A DNA stretch of 64,000 nucleotides from Klebsiella pneumoniae (GCA_945865755.1 CAMBFS010000001.1:3210-67209), one strand, 5' to 3'. Shown: positions 29,657 to 49,981, counted from the stretch's first letter. The notes: a model not told the origin generated them from the letters alone. A program made the numbers and translations.

Positions 29657-31093
29657 ATGGCTCATTTTAACGGGTACGACACGGGCGACTTTTACGACGA
29701 GATGTTTTTCGCCAGCGCGCAGCCACGCCCCGGTGCGTCTCTCCTTCAGCAGCGCATCGACTCGCTCTCGAAGGGCGAACTGCTCCAGCGTCAGCAAGCC
29801 GCGGAACGCGCGTTGTTGCATCGTGGCATTACCTTCAACGTCTACGGTGACAACGCGGGCACGGAACGCATTTTTCCCTTCGACATTCTTCCCCGCATTA
29901 TCGAAGCCTCCGAATGGGAGTGGATAGAGCGCGGGCTCAAGCAACGGGTGTATGCCCTGAATCTCTTCATCGACGACATGTATCACGAGCAGAAACTGCT
30001 CAAGGATAAGATCATTCCTGAAGAGATCGTCTATTCGGCCCGCTCGTTTCGGCAGGCGTGTGTCGGACTCAATCCCCCGCGTGGGGTGTGGTGCCACATC
30101 ACCGGCACGGACCTGGTGCGCGACCGCGACGGCCAAATCTATGTGCTGGAAGACAATCTGCGGTGCCCGTCTGGGGTATCGTATGTGTTGGAAAGCCGCC
30201 AGATTCTCAAGCGCACCTTTCCGCAAGTCTTTGGCGAGTCCCGGGTCCGCCCTGTGGACGACTATCCCGGCCACCTGCTGGATATGCTGCAAGCGCTCGC
30301 GGCGGACTATATTCAGTCGCCCACTGTGGCGGTGCTGACACCAGGGGCCTATAACTCGGCCTATTTCGAGCATTCGTTTCTCGCCCAACAGATGGGCGTG
30401 GAACTGGTTGAAGGGCGAGATCTGGTCGTCGCCGACGGCCTGGTGCAAATGCGCACCACGCATGGGCTCAAGCCTGTTGATGTCCTCTACCGGCGCATTG
30501 ATGATGATTTTCTCGATCCCTTGACCTTCCGGCCCGATTCCTTCTTGGGCGTCCCTGGTTTGATGGAGGTCTACAAAGCCGGACGGATCGCGTTGGCCAA
30601 TGCGCCGGGGACAGGCATCGCCGATGACAAAGTCATGTATGCCTACGTGCCGAAAATCATCAAATACTATCTCGGCGAAGACAGCATCATTCCCAATGTA
30701 CCGACATACGTCTGTTGGGATGAGAAGGAACGAGGCTATGTGCTTGATCACCTCGACCAGCTCGTCGTCAAAGCCGCCAATGAATCCGGGGGCTACGGCA
30801 TGTTAGTTGGCCCGCATGCCACCCCGGGCGAACGCGCGCAATTCGCGGACCTGATTCGCGCCAATCCCCGCAACTACATCGCCCAACCGACCTTATCCTT
30901 ATCGCGCGTGCCGGTGATCGTGGATGACCATTTCGAGGGGCGCCATGTCGATCTGCGACCATACATCCTGTATGGCTCGGACATTTACGTGCTCCCTGGC
31001 GGGCTCACCCGCGTGGCCCTCAAGAAAGGTTCTCTCGTTGTGAACTCCTCGCAAGGGGGCGGCAGCAAGGATACCTGGGTCTTATACAAATGA
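29657..31093 (+). CDS. Circularly permuted type 2 ATP-grasp protein
   Basis: [58 protein letters not shown]. Confidence 0.93.
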
Positions 31094-36375: not shown

Positions 36376-37281
36376 TCATCGCATCGGCCCAACCGTTACC
36401 TTAACATCCAAGGTCTGGGTCCCACCGCCATGAATCACCCCACGTACCGGCGTGACATCAAGGAAGTCGCGCCCCCAGCCAATCGTGATGTGCTCCACCG
36501 ACGGCAGCAGATTGTTGGTGGGATCAAAGTCGATCCACCCACAGCCAGGCACGAACAGCGAAACCCACGCATGCGACGCATCCGCCCCTATCCTCCGCGG
36601 TTGGCCCAGTGGCGGATGCGTCAGCAGATACCCACTCACATAGCGCGCGGCCAGCCCCAGCGACCGCAAACACGAAATCATGAAATGCGAGAAGTCTTGG
36701 CACACCCCACGTTTCTGTTCGAAAAACGACATCACCGACGTCGTCACCGTCGTCGCCGCCGCGTCGAACTTGAAGTCGCGATGAATCTTCTCCATTAACG
36801 CGCTGGCGGCCACGACCAGCGGACGCCCAGGAAGAAAACAGTCGCTCGCATACTGCCGCAGATCGCGTTTCACGCGGACATGGGGCGATTCAAACAGGAA
36901 CTGCGTAGCGTCCAGGATGGTCGCGTCAGGACGCCAAGTCGCGCGATAGGCCAACGCCTCACGCACGGTTTCCCAAGGCGGGGTCTCCTCCCCACGGGGC
37001 GGAAGCCGCGAACTCACCTCAATGATCGAGCGCGCGACAACCTCGAGCGCGTCGTGCGCGGTCTCCAGCGCCAGGACGGTCACGGGATTGCCAAAGGGGT
37101 CACACCCCTCGTGCCGGAGTGTGGGCTCGGGCGTCACCCGTACTTCATGACTGTGGACCTGTTGGCACGCGACCGGGCGCGGCGTCAGGTGAAGCTGTTG
37201 ATGAGACAAGGAAACCGGAGCCGAATACCGATAGTGGGTGCGGTGTTCGACGCGGTAGCGCCGGGCGTCGGGTGTGTTCAT
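36376..37281 (-). CDS. Transglutaminase family protein
   Basis: Y.V.H.T.Y.Y, GVCQDFSH, ARYVSGYL, ASHAWV, FDPTN, GRDF.DV.P. Confidence 0.93.
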   Translation of the reverse strand: MNTPDARRYRVEHRTHYRYSAPVSLSHQQLHLTPRPVACQQVHSHEVRVTPEPTLRHEGCDPFGNPVTVLALETAHDALEVVARSIIEVSSRLPPRGEETPPWETVREALAYRATWRPDATILDATQFLFESPHVRVKRDLRQYASDCFLPGRPLVVAASALMEKIHRDFKFDAAATTVTTSVMSFFEQKRGVCQDFSHFMISCLRSLGLAARYVSGYLLTHPPLGQPRRIGADASHAWVSLFVPGCGWIDFDPTNNLLPSVEHITIGWGRDFLDVTPVRGVIHGGGTQTLDVKVTVGPMR

Positions 37282-39806
37282 GCGGCCACACTCGATTGCG
37301 CCCGTTCACCCACGTGGATAAAGAAGCGCTGCGCGATTTCATCGGACAACCCATACGCCGCGCGTTGGCAGGCGGCGAGCAAGGTCACAAGTTCATTACT
37401 CTCCAGTGCCGCCGCGCCCGTGCGGCCCAGCTCGTCCAGTCGCGCGAGGTCAAAATCTCGTAACGCCTGGATCAAAAGCCGCAGGTCGTGCACCGGGCGA
37501 AAGCCTAACCTCTGGGCAAGCGTCGCGAGCGCGCGCCCCAAGCCCACGAGCTGAAACCCGACGGCATGGGGGTTCGATTCGTCAAAGACCAGCAGATCAA
37601 TCACCGGCAGCAGCTCGGGCTGGCGTTGATAGCGGGCGCGATAGGTAATGCTACTGTTGCCCACTTCCAAGAGCCCGCCGAGCGCCGTATCGCGCTTGGC
37701 CGCGGGTCGCACGAGCAGTTGGCGGATCATCGACGCGAGAAACGCCAGCCGTTCAATTTGCCGCCCCAGGAGGAGGAATTGCCAGGCATCATCGCGGGTC
37801 ATGTCATCAAACGCATACCCGGCAAGCGCGGTACAAGCCGGGAGCATGCGGTTCAACACCCCCAGGGCTTCCTCAATGTTGATCGGTGCCGGTTCATGCT
37901 CATGCGCGAGCCGCTGCACCGTATACCAGTTATCCAGCGAGATGCGCTCACGAATCTGCGTCGTACAGTACAGTAGCCGGGCGGTGTTGGCGGGCAGCCC
38001 ATTCTCAACCCGTGGGTCTCCCACCGCGGCCATGACCCAAGCGTCCCCATTGGGCGCGGTGGTGGCCGCGGGGGCTTTCTTTTTCCGTCCGCCGTGAACG
38101 GTGGTGGCGTCGCGGAGCTTTTCCGTATCGCATAAGGCCAGCAGCATGTCCACGCCAAGCGAGTCGGCGGGGTCGTTTTCCACCAGGCGACGCGCGGTCG
38201 CGCGCAGCAAGCGGCCAAAGTCCTCCACCCGCTCGGCGTAGCGCCCCATCCAGAACGAATTCTCCACCGCGCGTGACGGAGAGTATTGTCCCCCCCGCAC
38301 GATATCGCGGGCCGTCACCTGCGGGTGCAACAAGGATTCCCAATTGGTGACCGCACCGTCGAGCACCCAGGTATCCTTGCTTGACCCCCCACGCTGCATA
38401 CTAATGACTTCCGTGTCCGCGTCGGGGGAGACCCGCGTCAACCCGCCGGGCATCACCTCGTAGCCATTGGCGCTCGCCACCGCGTACAGTCGTAAGCCGA
38501 TCGCGCGCGGTTCAAATCGCTGCCGCTTACCGAGCCAGGTTGGCGCATGGGAAAGCCGGACCCATTCCTGCGCGACGTAGGCATGCGGGTTGTCACGCAG
38601 TCGCTTGACCATCTGTTCCTGGGCCGCCGCGTCGAGCCGGTGACCGAAAGTGGCCTCCAGCTTCATGGAGGGAAAGGCGGACTTGATGACGAGATCAGGC
38701 AGATGGGCCACCACATGGTCGAGCGCGGGCGCTTCCCCACACCACCACGTCGCCACCGAAGGTAAGACGAGCGACTCCCCCAAGAGGGCTTGGCAAATCC
38801 CCGGCAGAAACCCCAGTAACGCGGGATTCTCTAGCACACCTGAGCCGAGCGCATTGGCAATGACCACATGGCCGGCCTGAGCCGCGGCAAGCAAGCCCGG
38901 CACCCCCAACGCGGAATCGGCGCGTAACGTCGCGGGGTCGCAGTACTCGTCATCCAGCCGGCGGAGCAGCACATGCACGCGCTTGAGCCCTTCCAGGGTT
39001 TTCAAGTAGACGCGATTCTCGCGCACGGTCAGGTCGGAGCCTTCCACCAGGACAAAGCCGAGGTAGCGCGCCAGGAAGACGTGCTCAAAGTAGGTTTCGT
39101 TGTACGGGCCGGGGGTGAGCAACGCGATCACCGGCGGCTCGCCATTGGTCGGCGCGAGCGCGGCCAAGCGCTCTTGCAGCGTGCGGAAGAAATGCGCGAG
39201 GCGTTGCACGCCGAGTGTCCGAAACAACGTGCCGTGCATCGGCCCCACGATGAGCCGGTTCTGCAACGCGTAGCCGCTCCCCGACGGGCCTTGCGTCCGA
39301 TCCGCCAGTATCCACCAGCGTCCATCCGCGGAGCGCGCGAGGTCACAACTATAGAGGTGGAGATAGGTCCCCCCCACCGGCGGGACACCCCGGCAGGGCC
39401 ACAGATAGTTGCGATGCCCATAGATAATCGCCGGGGGCAGTAACCCCTCGGCCAGCAACCGCCCCGGTCCGTACAGGTCAGCCAAGACCATGTTCAATAA
39501 GCGCGCGCGTTGGGCCACGGCGCGGGCGAGGACATGCCATTCCTCGGGGCCGATAATCAAGGGCAGCACGTCCACTTCCCACGGGCGGTCCGCCCCCTTG
39601 GTATCCGCGTAAATGTTATAGGTGACGCCGTCCTGCTCGACCGCTCGCCGAACGGATCGGGCATGCCGCATCAACTCGGCCTGGCCCATCCGCGACACTG
39701 TTTGCGCGAATTGTTCCCAATGCGAGCGCGGCTGCCCCGCGCTCGCAAACACTTCATCATAGCGGTCAGGCTTGAGGGCGTAGCTCGTGAATTTTGACGA
39801 TGTCAT
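37278..39806 (-). CDS. Circularly permuted ATP-grasp fused to alpha-E domain
   Basis: GVTYN.Y, PSGSGYA, NETYFEH, GGSSKDTWV, then SRAVENSFWMGRYAER, GRQIER, ESNPH. Confidence 0.92.
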   Translation of the reverse strand: MTSSKFTSYALKPDRYDEVFASAGQPRSHWEQFAQTVSRMGQAELMRHARSVRRAVEQDGVTYNIYADTKGADRPWEVDVLPLIIGPEEWHVLARAVAQRARLLNMVLADLYGPGRLLAEGLLPPAIIYGHRNYLWPCRGVPPVGGTYLHLYSCDLARSADGRWWILADRTQGPSGSGYALQNRLIVGPMHGTLFRTLGVQRLAHFFRTLQERLAALAPTNGEPPVIALLTPGPYNETYFEHVFLARYLGFVLVEGSDLTVRENRVYLKTLEGLKRVHVLLRRLDDEYCDPATLRADSALGVPGLLAAAQAGHVVIANALGSGVLENPALLGFLPGICQALLGESLVLPSVATWWCGEAPALDHVVAHLPDLVIKSAFPSMKLEATFGHRLDAAAQEQMVKRLRDNPHAYVAQEWVRLSHAPTWLGKRQRFEPRAIGLRLYAVASANGYEVMPGGLTRVSPDADTEVISMQRGGSSKDTWVLDGAVTNWESLLHPQVTARDIVRGGQYSPSRAVENSFWMGRYAERVEDFGRLLRATARRLVENDPADSLGVDMLLALCDTEKLRDATTVHGGRKKKAPAATTAPNGDAWVMAAVGDPRVENGLPANTARLLYCTTQIRERISLDNWYTVQRLAHEHEPAPINIEEALGVLNRMLPACTALAGYAFDDMTRDDAWQFLLLGRQIERLAFLASMIRQLLVRPAAKRDTALGGLLEVGNSSITYRARYQRQPELLPVIDLLVFDESNPHAVGFQLVGLGRALATLAQRLGFRPVHDLRLLIQALRDFDLARLDELGRTGAAALESNELVTLLAACQRAAYGLSDEIAQRFFIHVGERAQSSVAA
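39759..39806. repeat. Direct repeat copy A (5' end of ATP-grasp/alpha-E gene)
   Basis: 46/48 identical to 46479-46526; 40 bp exact (39763-39802 = 46483-46522). Confidence 0.95.
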
Positions 39807-39988
39807 GGGTGGTATGTCCGGGGAAAAGACAGAAAAATGTGGAGTGTGAAACGACCTTTTTTCTCTTCTCTCTTATCAATTTTGATGATCAAAATCGGTC
39901 ATGGCCGTAAGGTCGCTTTCAGGTTCCTTCTCCCAGCCGGGAGAGGGAGCTTCGAAATCTCCTAACTTAATGCCATTACTCTTCTGCC

Positions 39989-42900
39989 CTACCATGTTCC
40001 ACGGTATTCCCCGGTCAAGGTAACGCCTGCCCAGAAGTAGGGGGCTTGCCAGGACCGCTGTTGATCTTCGAGGACCGCTAACTGGGCGGCCCGGAGGGCG
40101 CTGGCTGTTGTCTGATGTTGCTGCAACTGGCGGTGGAAATGCGTCATCAGGGCTGCGGTTGCCGCATCGTTCACGGTCCACAGTGTCGAAATGACACTAG
40201 GTGTTCCAGCGGAGAGGAAGGCTCGGGTCAAGCCGATAATCTCATCGCCATTACTCTGTGCCCCCAGGGCCGTATTACAAGCTGAGAGAACAACCAGATG
40301 GGTAGCGCTCAGATCAAGACCGTAGATGTCCAAGGCTTTCAGTTGACCAGCGGGCTGATCAGCGGGACTGAGCTTGATGTAACTGAGCAGTGCATGGGTT
40401 TGATTGTAGACGCCATGCGCGGCGAGATGGAGGACTGTGCTGCCGCCAGCCTTCTCATACAGCCGCGTTTTGGTGGCCTCAGCTCCCACCAGCGCTTGGG
40501 TCTGGTACAGCGCGGCAATGGCCTTGGCCTCGGTTGCGGCCTCCGGTAAGGAGCCGTCCGGGTTACCAAACACCAGTATCTGGGGAGTAGTCGCCTGGCG
40601 TTTGGGCCGCACAAAACGCAGGACGCTCGCGCTGGGAGCTAGGGTCAACGCATAGTCCTGCAGGAGATAGCGTTGGCTGGTTTTGTTCCGCAAGGCACTA
40701 AACGGCAAATAATGTAACGGTCCATGCGGTACGATGATCAGATTAGTGTGGCGAATAGCGGATTGGAGAGGCGCGATAAGCTGTGTATGGAGCAGCTCCA
40801 GTGCTGGTGGGCTCGCTCCCTGGGGGTGGGTGAGCAAGTCGTTGAGGGTCCGTACATCGGTGGCCAATTGTCCCTTGGGCACTGGCAAGGTGAACAACTG
40901 AGCCTTGTCCCGGTCGATTACCCACGCGAGGGTCTGTTTGGTGGTGACAAAGTACGAAATGAGAGTGGTGTGTTCATCCAGAAGATCGCGTTGTATCTCC
41001 GCCAGACTGACGGTATGAACGCTGAAAAGCGCGGCGTACTCCGGGTGCGTCTGTTGGAGACGTGCTAATGCTTTGTCGTACTCCTGGCGTTTCTGCTCCC
41101 ACTGCTGACGTATGGTTTGACATGCGGTGTTCTCAGGTTCCTCTCCGCGTGTGGGCTCACTTGGACAGGCGGCGAGACGGTTCTGCAAGACCGTCAGGGC
41201 GCTGCGTAGTTCCTCCATAGGCGCGCGGACTTCCGGTGGCGCCCCGTGGACGGGGAGCGCGCGCTGGCCGAGCTGATTTAAGAAGGCGCGCGCCCGTGCT
41301 CGTTCGGCATACGCAAAACTGCCAGCGGTATCCTGGCCGGTGGCGAGCAATTCAATAACGTGTTCGTAGAGTGGAGTCTGAGCACTGGCAAAGCCGGCCA
41401 CCAAGCTATCGAGGCGTATGGCGCCCTGGACATTCTCAACGGCGTCGATGGCTGCATAATACCACTTGATAGCTTCTGGGAGCTGCCCTTGTTTTTCGTA
41501 GACGGTGGCAATGCCCTGCAAGGCCGTAGCCTGCAGTTCGAGCGGCAGATATTTCTCAACCATCTGATACGTCCGGAGGGCTTCGGAAAGCTGCCCCCGA
41601 GTCAGAAGGTCATGTGCGCTCCGTAGCTGTTGACTGTCATCAAGGAGATTTTCTCCAGGGAGGCAGAATGCAAGCTGTGATTTCGCGGGAAGGCCAGCCT
41701 GTTTTGCCTGTTGGTCTTCTTCGGTTAGGCTCTGCCGCGGAGATTTCCGTGTCGATGCTTCGCGACTCGGCAGACCGCCATGGGTAACCTCAGTACTCGG
41801 TAAATCGACCGACGACGTGGCCTCAACCTGTTCCCACGCCTTGAGGTAATTCTCCCGGGCTTTATCGAGGCGGTCACGACGCGCGAAAAGGTCTCCTAAC
41901 ATATTCAGGCGCGTGATTTCCAGGCGAGGTGGACAGACTATGAGGCGTGTGGCAGAGGGAGCAACGTCAGCTTGCCACTGTAGGAGAGGGGCGATCATTG
42001 GCTGGACTTGTTGCGCCATAGCCTGGGATGTCAGGCCGCCTTCTATCATCATCTTACCTGTGCGATAGCCTCTTATGAACTTCTGATGGTACTCCAGCGC
42101 CATCTTACGCTGTTGCTGCAAGGATTCCTCGACTTGCACGCGATAGCGACAGCGAGTTTTCTCTTCCTGGGGCTTCTGCTGACACTGGGCCAGCATTTCG
42201 GCTAGCAACGGTCCCGGCTCGGGGTGATGCTCTGGCACCGGCACGCGCCGCTCGTTGGGGACAGAGGCTTGGCGCTCCCAGCGTGGGGTTTCTGCTTGGA
42301 ATTCCGCGAGGGCTTCGCGTTGATACCGCTGAAACTGCTTGTCCGTGGAGGAAAGCGGAGGAAGAGGGATATTCTCTTCCTCAAACGAGCTGTCATCGTT
42401 TTCCTGTCGCATCATGTTCAGAACCGCCTCCGGGACCCGGTGAGGTCCAGCAAAGAGGCGGTGACGCATAGCAATAGCCAGCGCTTTGCTTTCCTGCGGT
42501 TTCAGCAGTGGCCGCAGCACGGTCTCCGCCTGACGTAAAGCGTCCTCTGCCTTGAGGTCAGCGCCCAGGCGGACATACAACTTCGCTATCTGGATGAGTC
42601 CTTGCGCTCGGGTCAGTGCTGGGCTGTCTGGCCCCCAGAAAGACTGGGCCGCTTCAAAGTGTGTGAGGGCCTCTTCATAGAGCCCCAGCAAGCGGGCCGA
42701 CAATCCGAGAAAAGTATGGGTCTTAGCGGCAGCATGGCGGTCATCAAGCGTCTGCCAGAGGGCGAGCGCCTCGGTCAACAACTGCCGGGATTTGGTCGTA
42801 AGGCCGAGGTTCTGGTAGGTTTCGCCAAGGCTCGTCAAAATGGCGGCTTCGGCTTGGCGATTCTTGAGATCGCGCGCTAGGTCAAGTGCTAGGCGGTAGT

Positions 42901-43447
42901 GCGCCACGCCTTCCGCCGGATTCATCATTGAACTGGCACGACCGAGTCCGTGCCGGGCCTCGACTTCAGCGGACCGGTTGCCGGCGCGACGTGCCAGGAC
43001 GAAGGCGCGCTCAAACGTCGGAGCGGCGACAAGCGGGACACTGTCTTCGAGCAAGCGTTTCCCCTCCGCAAGTAATTTTTCTACCGGTTGTTCGAGATCT
43101 GTCGCTGAAAGGGTCGTGGACGACGAGTCCTCCGCACGCTGTTTGAGGAGTTTATTTGTTGCCGAATCAAACTTTCCTGTGGCGGGTAATCCATGCTCAC
43201 GTTGGAATTGACGCAGGGCGTCTTGCATCTTCTTCTTCCCGCTACGCTTAACGCCATCTTCGGGGTCAACGTTATCTTCGGAGTCAACGTTATCTTCGGA
43301 GTCAACGTCATCTTCGGGGTCATACCCTTGGGCTTGGAGCGTTTGTTGCGCCTGCACGATGCGCATCGGTTCCTGGGCGGCAACGGTGTTGCCCAGGCAA
43401 CCCCACACCGTCAGGCAACATCCTATCCCCCAAATATATTGGGACAT
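39989..43447 (-). CDS. Exported peptidoglycan-binding / TPR / CHAT (caspase-like) protein
   Basis: Signal-like N-terminus (VAA-QE), PG_binding_1 (L...GYDP...ALRQFQREHGLPATG), TPRs, IVPHGPLHYLPF, LHLAAHG and VLSACNT dyad, APYFWA. Confidence 0.88.
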   Translation of the reverse strand: MSQYIWGIGCCLTVWGCLGNTVAAQEPMRIVQAQQTLQAQGYDPEDDVDSEDNVDSEDNVDPEDGVKRSGKKKMQDALRQFQREHGLPATGKFDSATNKLLKQRAEDSSSTTLSATDLEQPVEKLLAEGKRLLEDSVPLVAAPTFERAFVLARRAGNRSAEVEARHGLGRASSMMNPAEGVAHYRLALDLARDLKNRQAEAAILTSLGETYQNLGLTTKSRQLLTEALALWQTLDDRHAAAKTHTFLGLSARLLGLYEEALTHFEAAQSFWGPDSPALTRAQGLIQIAKLYVRLGADLKAEDALRQAETVLRPLLKPQESKALAIAMRHRLFAGPHRVPEAVLNMMRQENDDSSFEEENIPLPPLSSTDKQFQRYQREALAEFQAETPRWERQASVPNERRVPVPEHHPEPGPLLAEMLAQCQQKPQEEKTRCRYRVQVEESLQQQRKMALEYHQKFIRGYRTGKMMIEGGLTSQAMAQQVQPMIAPLLQWQADVAPSATRLIVCPPRLEITRLNMLGDLFARRDRLDKARENYLKAWEQVEATSSVDLPSTEVTHGGLPSREASTRKSPRQSLTEEDQQAKQAGLPAKSQLAFCLPGENLLDDSQQLRSAHDLLTRGQLSEALRTYQMVEKYLPLELQATALQGIATVYEKQGQLPEAIKWYYAAIDAVENVQGAIRLDSLVAGFASAQTPLYEHVIELLATGQDTAGSFAYAERARARAFLNQLGQRALPVHGAPPEVRAPMEELRSALTVLQNRLAACPSEPTRGEEPENTACQTIRQQWEQKRQEYDKALARLQQTHPEYAALFSVHTVSLAEIQRDLLDEHTTLISYFVTTKQTLAWVIDRDKAQLFTLPVPKGQLATDVRTLNDLLTHPQGASPPALELLHTQLIAPLQSAIRHTNLIIVPHGPLHYLPFSALRNKTSQRYLLQDYALTLAPSASVLRFVRPKRQATTPQILVFGNPDGSLPEAATEAKAIAALYQTQALVGAEATKTRLYEKAGGSTVLHLAAHGVYNQTHALLSYIKLSPADQPAGQLKALDIYGLDLSATHLVVLSACNTALGAQSNGDEIIGLTRAFLSAGTPSVISTLWTVNDAATAALMTHFHRQLQQHQTTASALRAAQLAVLEDQQRSWQAPYFWAGVTLTGEYRGTW

Positions 43448-43491
43448 TATGTTCTCTCCTTCTCACTAGTGTGCACCGTAGCGGTGCATGA

Positions 43492-44702
43492 TTACTGTTG
43501 TTGCCGCTGACGAGCGTCTTCCGTAGCGCGGCGGGCCTCTGCGGCCTCGGCTTCCGCCCCCATGTCGGTGTAGAGAGCGGCGGCTTGGGCAAATGAATCA
43601 GCCGCCTCCTTAAAGCGGTGCGTGGCATAGGACACCCGTCCTACCCCAAACATGGCCGCCGCGCGAGTCGCGGGACTCGGGGACAGCTCCAGAGCGGAGG
43701 CGTAGCTTTGCTGGGCGCGGGGATAGAGCTGGGTTATCAGATAGAGGTCACCCACCATCACCGAGACCTCTGCCGACGCCTGCCGTTGCAGCACTGCCTC
43801 GCAGGTGGCGAGCGCGTCCTCCCAGAGCTTATGCGTGACATACAGCCGGGCTAGGAGGAGGTCACGCGTAGTTTCTTCCACGGGAACGGTCAGCAGGTGG
43901 GCACGTTGTGTCTCGACAGCGGCGCGCTGTTCTGGCGTGAGGAGCGTCAGGTGAGATCTATCGGATGTCGAGGGTTCGGCCATGAGACTGAGACGAGCCC
44001 CAACGCGGAGAAACGCGGGCTGCCCCGGTATCAACGCTTGTTCCGGAGGAAAGGGTGTTGAGCAAACTCTTGGCGTGCGGTCTCCCTGGACCTCAGGGCC
44101 GCAAGTGACCTGGGAGGCGTCTAGACGAAAGGGTGGGTATCCTGTCACAGTAATCTCATATTCCACCGCTTGGGGCACCTGGGTCCACCGGATGGACGGG
44201 GTCGGGGCTCTAAGAGGGTCGTGTGCCGCGGACTGATGATGACCGGGACACCGTCCGTGTTCGTTGATGTCCGATCTTCACCCGGTAACACCTGGGCGCC
44301 AGCGATAGCCAGGACATAGCCGGGCTGCGGACGGACATCGCGATAGAGGCTGATGCCAACGTCCGTGCCCCGCCGACAAGCGCCCTCTGTAACTACCCAC
44401 TGCTCGGCGTTCTCGAGCCAAATCCAATGTCCCGTTGAACATATCAGTCCAGCTTGGACGGTGCCGCCCATCTCTTCGGGTTCTCCCTCCAGCACCGTCC
44501 CAGATTGGAGCACCTGGAGAGGATGGACGCGCCAGGAGATTGTCCCTTCTCTCACCATAATCCGACCTTTTGACTGGGTGAGCACCGCGTCGACCTGCTG
44601 TGCCAGAGCGTTTGCTAAGGAGCCACCCCACCACACGCTCATAAGACTTCCGAGGAGTCCGAGCGTCCTCCAATCTGTTTCACCTCTCCGGCAATTGGTC
44701 AT
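43492..44702 (-). pseudogene. Exported TPR protein split by a one-base frameshift near 44200
   Basis: Signal peptide (ALA-QQ); ISPRHTTLLEPRP continues as SIRWTQVPQAVEYEITV in the next frame; C-terminal TPRs. Confidence 0.7.
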
Positions 44703-44734
44703 AGCTGTCACTTCTCTCCCTCCCTGGTCGCGGG

Positions 44735-45676
44735 TTAAGCACACTGTGCCTCTTTCTCCAGATTACGCAGGTCCTTCTCAGGAACGTGGAGCCACCAGCC
44801 TTCACTACGTGCTTGGAGGTCTCGAAGCCTTTCGCATACTTGCGGATACTGCTTGAGGGCACGGGCTACCCGAGCCAGATCATATTGCACACGCACTTCG
44901 GCTTGCCAATCTTCCGGCGTTTGTGCCCGGAATAACGTGAGTGCGTGCTCAAGATGCTGACCCGCTTCCGCGAGCTGTTGCTCTTCAAGGGCGATTTCTC
45001 CCAAATGTTGATGGAGCTGCGGTATACGGGGATTACACCGCAGTCCATCTGTAAACGCTTTACCCGCGGGTTTCAGTTGTCGAGCATCTTTATACAGAAT
45101 GCCCAAGGCATTGTAGGCTTTGCCACACACTAATACCGGATCATTCTCGATCAGACCTGCACCACCGTTGAGAGGGGGAGCATGTTCCAACTCAGTGGCC
45201 TTCTTGAAGTGGCGCAGGGCAGATTCGAAATCGTTATTGTCGCGCGAGTGGCGCTGGGCATGCAGCTTGCCCAGCGCCAAGTGATACAGCCTGACGTTCT
45301 CGGCGTGCATGATGGCATTCTTGTAATGATCCAGGGCGTTACTTAACTGCCCCTGACCGATGGCAAGCTGGCCAAGGTTAGCGTGCGCTTGACTTAATGA
45401 GGGGAGCCACCAGAGGGCATCCTGGAATGCCTGGGCAGCATAGCGACCCTCACCGGCCATCGCCAAGGTAACGCCGTGATTGTTCAGACTTTGCGCTTGC
45501 CGATGCTTGTAGTAAGTCCATCCCTGCCAAAGGCCGACCCCCAGTGCGAAGAGCACTACACCCACCGCAACCCATCGTAGCCACTGGACTTGCGGTGGGT
45601 CTGGTGAGCCTGATGTCCGCCCCGACGTCTTCGGCTCCTCTCGCGGCGTCGGGGCTAATGAGGGCGCTCGGTCACC
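44735..45676 (-). CDS. TM plus TPR protein; frame open upstream to 45676, probably the frameshifted C-terminus of the nucleosidase
   Basis: Pro-rich linker, TM WLRWVAVGVVLFALGVGLWQGW, TPRs (AHANLG, YHLALG, AYNALG, LHQHLG). Confidence 0.7.
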   Translation of the reverse strand, partial: GDRAPSLAPTPREEPKTSGRTSGSPDPPQVQWLRWVAVGVVLFALGVGLWQGWTYYKHRQAQSLNNHGVTLAMAGEGRYAAQAFQDALWWLPSLSQAHANLGQLAIGQGQLSNALDHYKNAIMHAENVRLYHLALGKLHAQRHSRDNNDFESALRHFKKATELEHAPPLNGGAGLIENDPVLVCGKAYNALGILYKDARQLKPAGKAFTDGLRCNPRIPQLHQHLGEIALEEQQLAEAGQHLEHALTLFRAQTPEDWQAEVRVQYDLARVARALKQYPQVCERLRDLQARSEGWWLHVPEKDLRNLEKEAQCA

Positions 45677-46464
45677 TCAATCAAACCATTGCTGAGCTTT
45701 GCGAGCATCTCAAAAGCGAAGGCACTCGCATGCCCAGAGGCGATACTCTGGTACCCTGCGGCATCCGCTTTGCCCTTGGCATCAACGAGGTCCGAAATAC
45801 CACGAATAATCAATGCCTCGACTTGGTTAGCGTGCGCACCTTGCAGTACGCCAAATCCTTCCATTTCGACCGCGAGGGCATCGCCATAGTTGGTTTGCAA
45901 AAACCGATAGACTTCGGAATGCGTATCGGCAACGACTTTCTCCCCGGCTGCGATAGCTCCCACAAATACTTGCGGCGGCGGAGAAGGGACGACGTTGAGC
46001 CGTTTCAACCAATCGGTTTTCCGAGCTTCCGCCCGTGCCCGCTGGACTAAGCGAAAAGCGGAATTGCCCACGATGGGTCGAGGCAGAAAGGTTGCTTTTG
46101 CTTTGCCAGACTCGTACCCATACACTTTCGTCGCTACGACCACATCCCCTAGTGCAACGTCTTTAAGTCCGCCGCCCACTCCAACAAAAAAAAGAACGTT
46201 CGGCTGGAAATGCTGAATCGCCCGTTCGGCCTCCAACACCGCCGAATTATTCCCCGCACCCATCTCGACAAGCACTACTTCCCAAAAACTATCGCCTGAT
46301 ATGAAGATGCCTCTTTCGTAGACAGTTCCGTGGGGATGCGTTTCTTCTCGGAGGTCAGTCAGGTAGGCTTTTACCGCCTGGTATTCAACGGGAAGTGCGG
46401 TCAAGAGAACAACTCGGCCTAAAAGACGATTCTCCGATTTTTTCTTACTGGGGGACTCGTTCAT
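45655..46464 (-). CDS. PNP_UDP_1 / MTA-SAH nucleosidase-like domain protein
   Basis: LTALPVEY, GAGN, FVGVGGG..DV.LGDVVV, IAAGEKVV, AVEMEG, IRGISD. Confidence 0.88.
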   Translation of the reverse strand: MNESPSKKKSENRLLGRVVLLTALPVEYQAVKAYLTDLREETHPHGTVYERGIFISGDSFWEVVLVEMGAGNNSAVLEAERAIQHFQPNVLFFVGVGGGLKDVALGDVVVATKVYGYESGKAKATFLPRPIVGNSAFRLVQRARAEARKTDWLKRLNVVPSPPPQVFVGAIAAGEKVVADTHSEVYRFLQTNYGDALAVEMEGFGVLQGAHANQVEALIIRGISDLVDAKGKADAAGYQSIASGHASAFAFEMLAKLSNGLIEVTERPH

Positions 46465-46478
46465 TGTGGGTATTCCTT

Positions 46479-46526
46479 ATACCGGTCAGGCTTGAGGGCG
46501 TAGCTCGTGAATTTTGACGATGCCAT
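46479..46526. repeat. Direct repeat copy B; starts a 21-codon leader ORF 46461-46526 on the minus strand
   Basis: Encodes MASSKFTSYALKPDRYKEYPQ versus MTSSKFTSYALKPDRYDEV in the ATP-grasp gene. Confidence 0.95.
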
Positions 46527-46597
46527 TGATGGGTCGTACCTTGAGACTAGAGGCTTGAGACTAGGGACTTGAGACCTTGGACTTTGGACCTTGGACT

Positions 46598-49500
46598 TCA
46601 GCCCTTGCGCAGGTCAAGTGTAAAGGGGAACTCCGGGTCAACCCGCGGTGGAGCGACTTCCAGGCGTCCCTGCGTGTGCCCGATACGAAAGAACCGCGCC
46701 TGGCGGCGACTCTCCGCCTCAAAGGCGTTGATCGGGAACGTCTCATAATGGCGTCCGCCCGGATGCGTCACATGATACTGACACCCGCCCAGGCTGCGTT
46801 CCATCCAGCGATCAACCACATCAATGATAAGCGGCGTGTGCACCTCAATCGTCGGATGCAGCGCGGTCTCTGGTTGCCACGCTCGATAGCGGACCCCAAC
46901 CACGAACTCCCCCACCGTCCCGGTCGGTTGCAAGGGCAGCGGGACCCCGTTGCAGGTGATCACGTGGCGATCCGGTGGCAGCCCGGTCACTTTGACTTGG
47001 AGCCGTTCAAGCGAAGCATCCACGTAACGGACCGTCCCACCCGGTGCCCCTTCTTCGCCCATCACATGCCAGGGCTCAAGCGCGCTGCGCAGTTCGAGCG
47101 TGATCCCGCGGGTGGCGAAGTCGCCATATTGAGGAAAACGAAACTCAAAGTGCGGCGCGAACCAGCGCGCCTCAAACGGGTATCCAGCCTCGTGCAATTC
47201 GCTGAGGACATCGACAAAGTCCAGCCACACGAAGTGCGGCAGCAGGAACCGATCATGGAGTTCGGTCCCCCAGCGCACCAAGCGTGGCGGTGAGTAGGGC
47301 GTGCGCCAAAAGCGCGCGACCAGGGCCCGTAACAACAGTTGCTGGGTCAAGCTCATGCGCGCGTGCGGGGGCATTTCGAACGCGCGCATTTCCAGCAGGC
47401 CCAGCCGCCCGGTGGCACTGTCCGGGGAATAGAGTTTGTCGATACAAAATTCCGCGCGATGCGTGTTCCCGCTCACGTCGATCAACAAGTTGCGCAGGAG
47501 GCGATCCACCAGCCACGGGGGGCAGCGGTCACCATGCGCGCGGGTCTGCCGTTCCATCTCGCGAAAGGCGATCTCGATCTCCGCGACCGCATCGTTGCGG
47601 GCCTCGTCAATCCGCGGGGCTTGGGACGTGGGACCGATGAAGAGGCCCGAAAACAAGTACGAGAGGGACGGGTGATTGTGCCAATAACTCAGCAGACTGC
47701 GTAACAGGTCCGGTCGGCGGAGCCAGGGCGAGTCGGTTGGGGTCGCCGCGCCCAGGGCAAAGTGGTTGCCGCCCCCGGTCCCGGTGTGACGTCCATCGAG
47801 CATGAATTTTTCGCTGGTGAGGCGCGACTGCCGGGCCTGGTCGTACAGAAATGTCGTGCGCTCGACCAGTTCCTCCCAGCCAGCGGCGGGATGAATGTTC
47901 ACCTCGATCACGCCGGGGTCTGGCGTCAGTTGGAACTGCACGAGCCGCGGGTCGCGCGGCGGCTCATAGCCTTCCAGCAGCACGGGCTGCTGCTGGTGTT
48001 CCGCCGTGGCTTCCACTGCGGTCACGATCTCCAGGTACTCTTCCAGCGACCTGACTGGAGGCATGAAGATATAGAGGATGCCGTTACGGACCTCGGCACA
48101 TAACGCGGTGCGGGCGATCCAGTCCGCGCTCTCACCGACTCGTGGCGCGGCCACTCGTGGGGGCGTGGCCACTCGTGGGGGCGTGGGGACGGGAGCACTA
48201 TACTCCGCGACGCTCGTCAGTCCTGTTGGCCTGCGGCTGCTCGGGTGCGTTTCGGGCCATTGCGGGGTCATCTGCGCACGCAGTTCACGATACGGTGACA
48301 GGGGCGCGCGCGGCGCGGTGGGATCGGCTGGATGTAGGTATGGGTAATCTGTCTTTTTCACCCAGGGGAGCGAGTCCAGCGGGAGACGATAGCCCAGCGG
48401 CGAATCCCCCGGAATCAGATGGCAGCGCTGATCGCGCAAAAACCAAGAGCTGGAAATCCACCGATCCGTCGCGGGATCACGTGAGAGCGGCACCGCATAG
48501 CCGACCGCCTGCTTCAGCCCTTGCGAAAAGACGCGGCGCAGGCGTTCCCGTTCCAGCGGATCCTCAAGACGTGAATCAAACAGATCGACATTGCTGGGCA
48601 AGTTGCGTTCGCGCCACAGAAAATAGAGCGCATCCTCGTATGCTGGAAAGATATACTGGGTATCGAGACCCAGCCGGGTCGTCACCTCACGGAGGAACGC
48701 TTCCGCCGTGGCGGCGGTCGCCTGGCCCGGTTGGGATTCGTCGGCGATCAGCGCGTCATTGAGCCAGAGCGGTTCTCCGTCTTTGCGCCAAAAGCAATTG
48801 AGCGACCAGCGGGGGAGCTGCTCCCCCGGATACCATTTGCCTTGGCCAAAGTGGACCAGCCCACGAGCCCCATACTGGTTGCGCAAGCGATGATAGAGGG
48901 TAGCCGCCAACTTTCTCTTGGTTGGTCCCACCGCAGTGGTGTTCCACTCCTCTCCGTCGGGATCATCAATGGCGACAAACGTGGGCTCACCACCCATAGT
49001 CAGTCGGACATCCTGAGCCTGTAAATCCGCATCGACATCCGTCCCCAGCCGCACGATCGTCCGCCATTCTTCCTCGGTGTAGGGCTTGGTCACCCGTGGG
49101 GCTTCCCATATCCGGGAGACCGACATCTGGTGGGAAAAGGTCACCTCGCACGCATCAAGGGTGCCGGTAATCGGTGCCGCGGACGAGGGCATTGGCGAGC
49201 ACGCCAGTGGGAGATGCCCTTCGCCGGCGAACAGCCCCGAGGTCGGGTCCAACCCCACCCAGCCCGCTCCGGGGAGGTACACCTCGGCCCAGGCGTGGAG
49301 ATCAGTGAAATCCTTGTCTGGCCCGGAGGGACCATCGAGTGATTTCACATCGGCTGTGAGTTGAATGAGATACCCGGACACGAACCGGGCGGCAAACCCC
49401 AGATGTCGCAGCAGTTGGACCAGCAGCCACCCCGAGTCACGACAGGAGCCTGACCGTTTCACCAGGGTTTCCTCCGGCGTTTGCACGCCGGGCTCCAGGC

Positions 49501-49981
49501 GAATCACGTATTGAATGTCGCCAGCAAGGCGACGATTGAGGTTGGCGAGAAAGGGCACCATCTCTGCCTTGTCGCGGGGAATCCCTGCGAGATAGCTCGC
49601 GAACAGCGGCGTCGCCGGTTCCCGCGTACAGTAGGGCGCGAGTTCGACCAACAACTCCGGTTCATACGCAAAAGGATAGTGCTCAGCGTACGGTTCCAAG
49701 AAGAAGTCGAAGGGGTTGATGACCGCCATCTCCGCGACGAGGTCGACTTCAACCCGCAACTCGCGCGTCGGTTCGAGAAACATGAGCCGGGCGAGATAAT
49801 TGGCTTGCGGGTCTTGTTGCCAGTTAATGAAATGGGTGGTGGGCAAGACCCGTAGCGAGTAGCTCAGGATCCGCGTCCGGCAATGTGGGGCTGGTCGCAG
49901 GCGAACAACCTGGGGGCCCAGGGTAATCAGTCGGTCATAGTGATAATGCGTCGTATGGTGCAAAGCGATGTGAATTGACAT
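46598..49981 (-). CDS. Transglutaminase plus putative amidoligase (DUF2126) protein
   Basis: SGSCRDSGWLLV, DLHAWAEV, DPTSG, LTMGGEPTFV, TPDPGVIEVN, GTGGGNH, NAFEAESRR. Confidence 0.92.
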   Translation of the reverse strand: MSIHIALHHTTHYHYDRLITLGPQVVRLRPAPHCRTRILSYSLRVLPTTHFINWQQDPQANYLARLMFLEPTRELRVEVDLVAEMAVINPFDFFLEPYAEHYPFAYEPELLVELAPYCTREPATPLFASYLAGIPRDKAEMVPFLANLNRRLAGDIQYVIRLEPGVQTPEETLVKRSGSCRDSGWLLVQLLRHLGFAARFVSGYLIQLTADVKSLDGPSGPDKDFTDLHAWAEVYLPGAGWVGLDPTSGLFAGEGHLPLACSPMPSSAAPITGTLDACEVTFSHQMSVSRIWEAPRVTKPYTEEEWRTIVRLGTDVDADLQAQDVRLTMGGEPTFVAIDDPDGEEWNTTAVGPTKRKLAATLYHRLRNQYGARGLVHFGQGKWYPGEQLPRWSLNCFWRKDGEPLWLNDALIADESQPGQATAATAEAFLREVTTRLGLDTQYIFPAYEDALYFLWRERNLPSNVDLFDSRLEDPLERERLRRVFSQGLKQAVGYAVPLSRDPATDRWISSSWFLRDQRCHLIPGDSPLGYRLPLDSLPWVKKTDYPYLHPADPTAPRAPLSPYRELRAQMTPQWPETHPSSRRPTGLTSVAEYSAPVPTPPRVATPPRVAAPRVGESADWIARTALCAEVRNGILYIFMPPVRSLEEYLEIVTAVEATAEHQQQPVLLEGYEPPRDPRLVQFQLTPDPGVIEVNIHPAAGWEELVERTTFLYDQARQSRLTSEKFMLDGRHTGTGGGNHFALGAATPTDSPWLRRPDLLRSLLSYWHNHPSLSYLFSGLFIGPTSQAPRIDEARNDAVAEIEIAFREMERQTRAHGDRCPPWLVDRLLRNLLIDVSGNTHRAEFCIDKLYSPDSATGRLGLLEMRAFEMPPHARMSLTQQLLLRALVARFWRTPYSPPRLVRWGTELHDRFLLPHFVWLDFVDVLSELHEAGYPFEARWFAPHFEFRFPQYGDFATRGITLELRSALEPWHVMGEEGAPGGTVRYVDASLERLQVKVTGLPPDRHVITCNGVPLPLQPTGTVGEFVVGVRYRAWQPETALHPTIEVHTPLIIDVVDRWMERSLGGCQYHVTHPGGRHYETFPINAFEAESRRQARFFRIGHTQGRLEVAPPRVDPEFPFTLDLRKG

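Follow-up and report, generated by a model that had tools for sequence, protein, structure and literature searches.

Positions 39989-46464 of the 64,000-nucleotide stretch CAMBFS010000001.1:3210-67209 (assembly GCA_945865755.1; hereafter the window, over whose whole length all positions are counted) hold three genes on the minus strand, made up of five open reading frames (ORFs) of at least 180 aa. We consider it probable, at roughly 60%, that these genes are one acquired copy of a recurring three-part envelope receptor-effector module. Part A would combine an N-terminal cytoplasmic enzyme, here a nucleosidase of the PNP family, with one transmembrane (TM) helix and a periplasmic TPR arm. Part B would be an exported, often lipoprotein-like protein of ~400 aa with an MtxA-like build (beta domain, Ig-like domain, TPRs), and part C a caspase-like TPR-CHAT protease that is likewise exported. 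The three families occur together: A is always next to B, B is also found fused behind CHAT-TM-TPR, and the N-terminal domain of A is swapped between loci. An initial annotation of the window had described a tightly packed, co-oriented unit, and the genes of the cassette (~39807-46475, 6.7 kb) do lie closely spaced on a single strand:

45655..46464, minus strand: gene 1, piece 1; 269-aa cytoplasmic PNP_UDP_1 nucleosidase module (Pfam E 1.9e-30)
44735..45676, minus strand: gene 1, piece 2; Pro/Ser/Thr-rich linker, one TM helix, TPR ectodomain
44145..44711, minus strand: gene 2, piece 1; signal peptide and N-terminal beta domain, with a ribosome-binding-site-like GGGAGGGAG upstream
43492..44277, minus strand: gene 2, piece 2; Ig/FN3-like domain and C-terminal TPRs, an open frame that needs no start codon under read-through
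39989..43447, minus strand: gene 3; probable signal peptide, PG_binding_1, TPRs, a region without Pfam match, TPRs, and CHAT with His/Cys

Signal peptides and TM helices were judged from hydropathy alone. The domain content proposed in the initial annotation stands for all three genes, namely nucleosidase, linker, TM helix and TPRs in gene 1, a signal-peptide TPR protein in gene 2, and a signal-peptide, peptidoglycan-binding TPR-CHAT protein with an intact His/Cys pair in gene 3. Genes 1 and 2 had been taken for single ORFs, and in this respect the annotation fails, as each carries a one-base frameshift; gene 3 is intact, with a signal peptide that is weak by hydropathy.

The recurrence of the module was established by scanning metagenomes with an alignment of six gene 2 sequences, which gave 12 loci; two Acidobacteriota genomes, one of which also holds L048 (see below), added two more (14 in total). 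Upstream sequence is visible in 12 of these (L079-L086, L089, L090, L124 and L125), L087 and L088 being too short on that side. In all 12, a same-strand gene for a TPR protein lies directly upstream. In each of the 11 loci where its N-terminus is visible, one or three TM helices come ahead of the TPRs; the twelfth is cut before the TM region. The domain in front of the membrane differs from locus to locus:

L081: N-terminal PNP_UDP_1 domain
L082: N-terminal TIR domain
L090: N-terminal protein kinase (Ser/Thr) domain
L080, L086, L124, L125: N-terminal CHAT domain
L083/L084 and L085/L089 (two near-duplicate pairs): short tail only

The initial annotation had predicted that the N-terminal effector would be exchanged elsewhere; TIR and kinase were indeed found, and CHAT as well. 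At L081 the gene order equals that of the window (PNP-TM-TPR, gene-2-like, signal-peptide TPR-CHAT), with a second, divergent TPR-CHAT gene in addition. TPR-CHAT genes also accompany the TM-TPR/gene-2-like pair at L090 and L083/L084, and an exported TPR protein cut by the contig end does so at L085. At L082, a caspase(C14)-TIR gene lies upstream. The TM-TPR piece of gene 1 matches seven of eight TM-TPR proteins (27-32% identity, E 5e-8 to 7e-19), and gene 3 matches the TPR-CHAT partners at these loci at 37-40% identity (E 1e-79 to 3e-125), as closely as any protein from species genomes. The window itself has a gene-2-like exported protein directly downstream of a TM-TPR protein, with all three parts homologous. 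That the genes might not co-occur elsewhere had been named as one outcome that would speak against the proposal; homologous trios and pairs do recur.

Gene fusions tie the families together as well. CHAT was present in all eight long proteins with a full gene-2-like module that were tested, seven in the order CHAT-TPR-module and one as module-...-CHAT. A clear hydrophobic segment separates CHAT from the TPRs in six of nine fusion proteins, and a seventh, which is N-terminally cut, may have one; the remaining two are one reverse arrangement and one without a hydrophobic segment.

Some of the loci carry further genes. Downstream of the gene-2-like gene of L088 lies an nSTAND1 NTPase-Trans_reg_C gene, which hints at a variant with transcriptional output. 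At L080 and L125, an exported M48-like peptidase and a membrane-anchored Peptidase_C14 caspase are encoded upstream of the CHAT-TM-TPR/Ig-TPR pair. A metagenome contig and an Acidobacteriota chromosome share this order of genes, with CHAT-TM-TPR proteins that are 71% identical.

Gene 2 belongs to a large family. The downstream piece, run with HMMER against 1.84 billion cluster representatives, matched 618 at E<=1e-3 and 136 at E<=1e-10; most are of 370-450 aa and align over their last ~240 residues. The best match besides the window's own product, P0124, is an intact protein of 409 aa (59% identity). It is colinear with the two pieces of gene 2, its first ~170 residues corresponding to the upstream piece and the remainder to the downstream piece, and the break sits between two motifs that are contiguous in P0124. 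Judged from these alignments, gene 2 is one broken gene. Across 40 aligned family members, four Cys, one Trp, one Tyr and a Pro are invariant. A hydrophobic stretch marks the N-terminus of 39, many with a lipobox-like Cys, and the exception seems to be N-terminally cut. The family is without a Pfam model of its own: the 40 members matched TPR models only, plus DUF928 below its cut-off. Membership in DUF928 (PF06051) was rejected, since the gene 2 pieces had no match to it at E<=10 and just one of the 40 members reached E 0.0066, below the cut-off.

The AlphaFold model of P0124 (pLDDT, predicted local distance difference test, 86.5) comprises a beta domain (residues 41-105), an Ig/FN3-like sandwich (158-260) and four TPR-like hairpins, with a low-confidence linker at 130-150. 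An Arg in this linker is nearly invariant, being present in at least 90% of the 40 members. The best match of the model in the PDB was the Ig-like and TPR structure of MtxA (4z29, E 3.5e-4, template modelling score 0.71 on the target). Look-alikes of part B in the ESM Atlas, which serve as leads only, are mostly cyanobacterial TPR proteins of ~330-370 aa; in some of their clusters, a fifth to a quarter of the members have DUF928 or MtxA domains. The module gives a first context to this large exported MtxA-like family.

The nucleosidase of gene 1 aligns with solved MTA/SAH nucleosidases, with conservation of three sequence blocks, which we take to hold the catalytic Glu, Glu and Asp of E. coli MTAN. 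The best solved match is distant (E ~1e-12, ~25% identity by eye). Among 8000 scored candidates, 2680 longer proteins contain the gene 1 module at E<=1e-3. The best 120 of these are 57-71% identical over ~90% of the domain, and their named sources are mostly cyanobacteria. Other Pfam domains in these proteins include PF13191, PF00931, PF05729, TIR_2/SEFIR, PF03781 and PF18145, four of these accessions presumably being AAA_16, NB-ARC, NACHT and SAVED; the module is also fused to CHAT (P0020) and to CHASE2 (P0049, P0110). Against PADLOC models, it scored E 1e-19 with PDC-M60C and E 5e-18 with a 'PN-superfamily' effector. Identity with the housekeeping enzyme MtnN, which the initial annotation had named as a way for its proposal to fail, was rejected, because the domain is far from the solved MTANs and 57-71% identical to modules fused to immune-type domains. 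On these comparisons, the gene 1 nucleosidase is classed as a mobile effector-type module and not as MtnN. The cassette shows a widespread cyanobacterial-type PNP effector wired to a membrane receptor.

The host genome (G000) has two further PNP_UDP_1 genes in contexts that look metabolic by eye. A second PNP system on contig C195 was considered and rejected, the gene there being a housekeeping-type phosphorylase (by eye) with unrelated neighbours. A cyanobacterial origin of the host genome was likewise rejected, there being no match to PsaA/PsaB in this genome, which is 85% complete. Among 40 relatives, the gene 1 PNP module occurs in one (G019, of the same family as the host), where it is joined to other partners. 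In that genome, the same module is fused to an unrelated soluble C-terminal region, and a second PNP type stands alone; the large protein encoded beside it, in which a P-loop motif can be made out by eye, is probably a STAND-type NTPase (L002, L003).

In the second open frame of gene 1, the TM helix spans residues 32-50 (Kyte-Doolittle 1.8 over 19 residues). The TPR ectodomain behind it ends in two Cys that are conserved in most of nine aligned ectodomains, in which 13 columns are invariant. CHASE2 (PF05226) was not found in this piece, its Pfam matches being TPR models only, and a search for longer fused relatives gave just two weak TPR matches.

Gene 3 encodes 1152 aa with PG_binding_1 (E 4e-7), TPRs and CHAT (E 2.2e-72) by Pfam. 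The His and Cys of the CHAT domain are invariant in an alignment with five homologues. The leader is weak, a basic n-region missing, and the homologues have clear signal peptides. As TPR-CHAT proteins are numerous, gene 3 alone is a poor anchor for synteny; when it was used as one, relatives in the class matched only residues ~630-870. Its PG_binding_1 region contains a short tandem repeat, which stretches the 57-position Pfam match over 72 residues:

43256..43322, strand not assigned: 18-nt tandem repeat, 3.7 copies, encoding acidic hexapeptides

The cassette interrupts an operon. A DUF2126/transglutaminase gene (46598-49981) and a circularly permuted ATP-grasp/Alpha-E gene (37278-39806) flank it, 6.8 kb apart. 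These two genes adjoin in all nine relatives that hold both on one contig, with gaps of ~14-60 nt in eight and of <400 nt in G015; the uninterrupted relatives include a genome of the same genus with a DUF2126 protein 98% identical. Moreover, the first ~50 nt of the ATP-grasp gene are duplicated on either side of the insertion, with an exact 40-nt core:

46475..46526, strand not assigned: direct repeat, left copy, ~52 nt; exact core 46483-46522, flanks the insertion
39755..39806, strand not assigned: direct repeat, right copy; true 5' end of the circularly permuted ATP-grasp gene, exact core 39763-39802
46461..46526, minus strand: leader ORF of 21 codons; duplicated first codons of the ATP-grasp gene, its TGA overlapping the gene 1 ATG (ATGA)

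Since the operon is uninterrupted in relatives and the cassette is bounded by a direct repeat, the three genes must have arrived together and recently. The unit of three genes proposed at the outset is thus a single insertion.

The neighbourhood of the insertion showed a few further features. The operon split by the cassette consists of DUF2126/transglutaminase, ATP-grasp/Alpha-E and transglutaminase genes (36376-39806, 46598-49981). The ATP-grasp gene keeps its own start, and the relic of its first codons forms the leader ORF for gene 1. Tandem repeats of 14 nt and 7 nt (2.6-4.9 copies) cover the DUF2126 stop region at 46540-46607, beside the insertion boundary. Another circularly permuted ATP-grasp gene, a shorter paralogue, is encoded on the other strand at a distance of 6 kb (29684-31084; G000:C1:32893-34293); it is 37% identical to the first over residues 13-482 of the latter, and relatives have the same pair of paralogues.

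The two frameshifts affect the copy in the window as follows. The gene 1 frame for the TM helix and TPRs, which stays open between 45676 and 44735, is shifted by -1 against that of the nucleosidase and shares the last 22 nt of the latter. Its first ATG, GTG or TTG falls within the TM helix, so that this piece cannot sensibly start alone. In gene 2, which starts at 44711 or 44702, the first frame (44145-44744) stops at 44145, and the -1 frame is open from 44277 to 43492. The breaks were located to two intervals:

45658..45676, minus strand: gene 1, -1 frameshift interval, between the downstream-frame stop and the nucleosidase-frame stop
44186..44207, minus strand: gene 2, likely -1 frameshift site; two CCCC runs between motifs contiguous in intact relatives

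The sequence is present in lake-water metagenome runs of two studies. In one of these, contigs of other samples span both break sites with no differences and no gaps: the gene 1 site is covered by X2 record 9 (45523-46155) and X3 record 17 (45632-46194), and the gene 2 site by X2 record 4 (43517-44417). X1 is possibly the source sample and thus not independent, and X4 does not cover the gene 1 site; the contigs have low depths of 3-10x and would hide rare variants. As the contigs of other samples are identical over the breaks, the frameshifts exist in the DNA of the population and are no slip of assembly. They would uncouple the parts, leaving a free 269-aa nucleosidase, an untranslatable TM-TPR segment and a truncated part B. 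With one base out of frame in part A and again in part B, this copy has most likely lost its ability to signal. The frameshifts together with the recent arrival and the rarity of the family in the lineage make it look like an acquired cassette in early decay.

It seems very unlikely that the copy nevertheless functions, be it through separate pieces (a free nucleosidase plus a TM-TPR protein started inside the helix), ribosomal slippage, or reversal at the short C runs. For such function speak the downstream frames of both genes, which are open without further stops, the position of both breaks at or near short C runs, and the existence of stand-alone PNP modules beside partner genes (L003). 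Against it stands the start codon within the TM helix, the only one that the TM-TPR frame offers. The gene 2 break, moreover, falls between domains that all 40 aligned relatives carry on one chain, and runs of three to four C are too short for usual phase variation. Programmed frameshifting was rejected, as no X_XXY_YYZ slippery heptamer was seen by eye in either frame overlap. Being frameshifted, the copy in the window is of limited experimental use.

From the predicted topology, we propose the following working model. The enzyme of part A would lie inside the cell and its TPR arm outside, together with parts B and C, because such enzymes need cytoplasmic substrates and lack leaders, and because leaders and conserved Cys mark both B and C. 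In the periplasm, part B and the TPR arm of A may form a resting sensor complex. An event outside the cytoplasm would alter this complex, possibly read or relayed through proteolysis by CHAT. The caspase-like proteases to which it belongs cleave behind basic residues, and the nearly invariant Arg in the low-confidence linker of part B is a candidate cleavage site. The changed assembly state of A would then switch on its cytoplasmic domain, and a PNP or TIR output could lead to nucleotide or NAD breakdown and growth arrest. The trigger, the protease substrate and the immune role in this model are inferred only. A complex prediction for the TPR ectodomain of L081 and its gene-2-like partner scored 0.00, which speaks neither for nor against binding.

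Several observations weigh against this explanation or against parts of the initial reading. The N-domain of gene 2 was found in none of 300 other genomes of the class. Among 401 genomes of the phylum (400 others and G000), a full-length match to the gene 2 family occurred in G000 only; the profile matched 60 of the 401, with partial mid-domain matches in G643 and G666, and the other listed matches concerned the generic TPR end. The module family is thus rare and nearly missing from the organism's own lineage. A separate exported TPR-CHAT gene occurs at just four of the 14 other loci (L081, L083, L084, L090), many of whose contigs are short, and CHAT is the cytoplasmic domain of part A at four loci; with so few loci holding a separate TPR-CHAT gene, part C may be optional. 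Peptidoglycan binding, which the initial annotation had made a feature of the system, was seen in this copy alone, PG_binding_1 being absent from the five other partner TPR-CHAT proteins scanned (E<=1e-4). None of 25 gene 3 loci from species genomes held a relative of gene 1 or gene 2 by tblastn. The nearest gene 3 homologue among them, L048 in a Thermoanaerobaculia metagenome-assembled genome (41% identity), has neighbours that look MoxR-like on one side and VWA-like on the other (by eye), and relatives of gene 1 or gene 2 are absent within 10 kb. The constant parts of the module matched none of 5027 PADLOC models. With two of its three genes frameshifted, the window copy itself probably does not work in the way first described. 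A periplasmic TPR-CHAT protein, DdvA, has already been published (PMC11506125), so that an extracytoplasmic CHAT is not new in itself. Finally, kinase outputs and a distant version with a CHASE2 cyclase fit ordinary signal transduction equally well.

If one went by the other neighbours of the nearest gene 3 homologues in species genomes, the three genes could be unrelated and side by side by chance. We regard this as extremely improbable: they came in a single insertion event, all three families are recurrently adjacent, including a locus with the same three-gene order, and the gene 2 module is found fused to CHAT. A weightier alternative keeps the module and changes its purpose, making it a device of ordinary envelope signal transduction, neither immune nor suicidal, which would respond to a periplasmic protein, cell-wall turnover or a self-made signal, and in which PNP and TIR domains would make or remove a small-molecule signal. 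The Ser/Thr kinase output at L090 is in line with this alternative, as is a distant sister-family version in which a CHASE2 adenylate cyclase is accompanied by a DUF928-like Ig-TPR protein and an exported TPR-CHAT. It also gains from two points in the available text of earlier work: MtxA, the closest solved look-alike of part B, is encoded in an operon with signal-transduction genes (PMC4439547), and Kaur et al. 2020 suggest that PNPase domains may make second messengers (PMC7159879). On the other hand, the swapping of PNP, TIR, CHAT and kinase domains on a constant scaffold is a pattern reported for conflict systems (PMC7159879, PMC8195603, as far as their available text goes). The effector domains match PADLOC models of defence systems, and patchy distribution, recent horizontal arrival and quick decay suit accessory conflict genes. 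Ordinary signalling is thus possible and, on our estimate, somewhat doubtful.

We put forward only tentatively, as something that may well prove wrong, that the receptor-effector module represents a new class of outside-in bacterial innate immune receptor. If this were true, a periplasmic assembly of TPR protein, Ig-TPR protein and caspase-like protease would detect phage entry or an envelope breach before DNA reaches the cytoplasm. A single membrane protein would then directly switch on a cytoplasmic suicide or arrest enzyme drawn from a swappable set (nucleosidase, TIR NADase, caspase-like protease, kinase), a bacterial counterpart of the death-receptor pathway with an extracellular protease step. 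To our knowledge, almost all known bacterial immune sensors read cytoplasmic signals. How cells notice an attack on the envelope is described as an open question in the available text of PMC11506125. As the domain layout of the module is defined, intact copies with four different outputs exist in nature and certain point mutants suggest themselves (CHAT Cys, linker Arg of part B, catalytic residues of PNP or TIR), the coupling of periplasmic sensing to cytoplasmic effectors is directly testable.

One of the closest known systems is DdvA-DdvS of Myxococcus xanthus, in which a periplasmic TPR-CHAT controls defence genes. According to the available text of PMC11506125, DdvA shares with the cassette a periplasmic TPR-CHAT with a His-Cys site, an envelope-spanning signalling device and a link to phage defence; its authors propose that a periplasmic signal activates CHAT proteolysis and is passed inward. 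In DdvA, however, the TPR-CHAT region shares one chain with a TM helix and a zinc anti-sigma domain in the cytoplasm, and signalling ends in the release of an ECF (extracytoplasmic function) sigma factor. The cassette has its TPR-CHAT as a separate exported protein, a TM protein with plain TPRs outside and an enzyme inside, and a third, exported Ig-TPR protein. Genes 1-3 had no zf-HC2 or other anti-sigma match, no sigma gene was present among the 10 neighbours scanned, and a sequence search with gene 3 did not recover DdvA at E<=1e-3.

The conflict systems that Kaur and co-workers describe for multicellular bacteria resemble the module in having a constant scaffold with variable PNPase, TIR, caspase-superfamily and kinase domains (PMC7159879, PMC8195603). 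The PNP module of gene 1 is likewise found joined to STAND NTPases, TIR and other domains. Their cores, as given in the available text, are vWA-MoxR, GTPase, STAND, EACC1 or TRADD-N and lie in or at the cytoplasm, unlike the cassette. EACC1, whose gene lies 5' of one for a caspase fusion, is described as a small protein in which a single TM helix is Gly-rich and conserved (PMC7159879, available text); by this description it differs from the TM protein of the cassette, which has ~250 aa of TPRs, an N-terminal enzyme and an Ig-TPR partner. A similar topology is found in PCTM, or receptor-like ParA, proteins, which the available part of a preprint (bioRxiv 10.64898/2026.10.19.760177) presents as type-II single-TM proteins that have a domain in the cytoplasm and TPRs or another region in the periplasm. 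It proposes that they respond to disturbance of the periplasm or of peptidoglycan by activating an effector. They differ in that a ParA NTPase serves as the switch on the cytoplasmic side, the effector is encoded by its own gene upstream, and the text describes neither a gene-2-like partner nor an exported TPR-CHAT. The same preprint mentions an unpublished caspase-based system with secreted proteins.

For part B alone, MtxA of Magnetospirillum (4z29) has the same order of signal peptide, beta-rich N-domain, Ig-like domain and TPR (PMC4439547); the available text gives it no link to CHAT or effector-TM-TPR proteins, and the 40 gene 2 family members had no match to the Pfam MtxA models at E<=0.01. 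The logic of the whole module recurs in neighbourhoods of CHASE2, DUF928-like and TPR-CHAT genes, which combine a membrane sensor with cytoplasmic output, an exported Ig-TPR partner and an exported or lipoprotein TPR-CHAT. They differ from the cassette in their CHASE2 sensor arm, C-terminal adenylate cyclase output and partner of ~310 aa. This sister-family partner, which itself has a weak DUF928 match, is 28% identical to gene 2 over 110 aa (E 8e-6). It occurs in 11 of 300 genomes of the class, on the same contig as a TPR-CHAT match in eight of the 11. The CHASE2 cyclase neighbourhood was seen at L027 (G207:C64) and L030 (G043:C171) and appears to be recurrent in the sister family; CHASE2 beside DUF928 is mentioned in the available text of PMC5587647. 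Two other sister-family loci, L025 (G027:C38) and L026 (G227:C92), have two to three tandem lipoprotein TPR-CHAT genes, which follow zf-HC2 anti-sigma-like and CHAT-DUF4384 genes, with a DUF4384 protein or M23 peptidase nearby.

The PNP-family nucleosidase domain is shared with effectors of the CBASS and Detocs type, presumably those named Cap17 and DtcC. Unlike these systems, the cassette has no cyclase, SAVED or two-component partner, and activation would have to cross the membrane. A TPR-CHAT of the Craspase or gasdermin-activating type was rejected, as gene 3 has a hydrophobic leader and PG_binding_1; its similarity to Csx29-type chains is weak (E 7e-5), and the neighbours of the cassette are the DUF2126 and ATP-grasp genes, with no Cas7-11 or gasdermin among them.

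The initial annotation had found no described system with this combination. For the trio this stands as far as the literature goes: it is not described in the available text of PMC7159879, PMC8195603, PMC10907252, PMC5587647 or bioRxiv 10.64898/2026.10.19.760177; such architectures may be listed in the supplementary tables of PMC7159879 and PMC8195603. It does not hold for a CHAT protease outside the cytoplasm, for which DdvA is the precedent. We place the module among the effector-swapping, receptor-like conflict or signalling systems and not in a new category.

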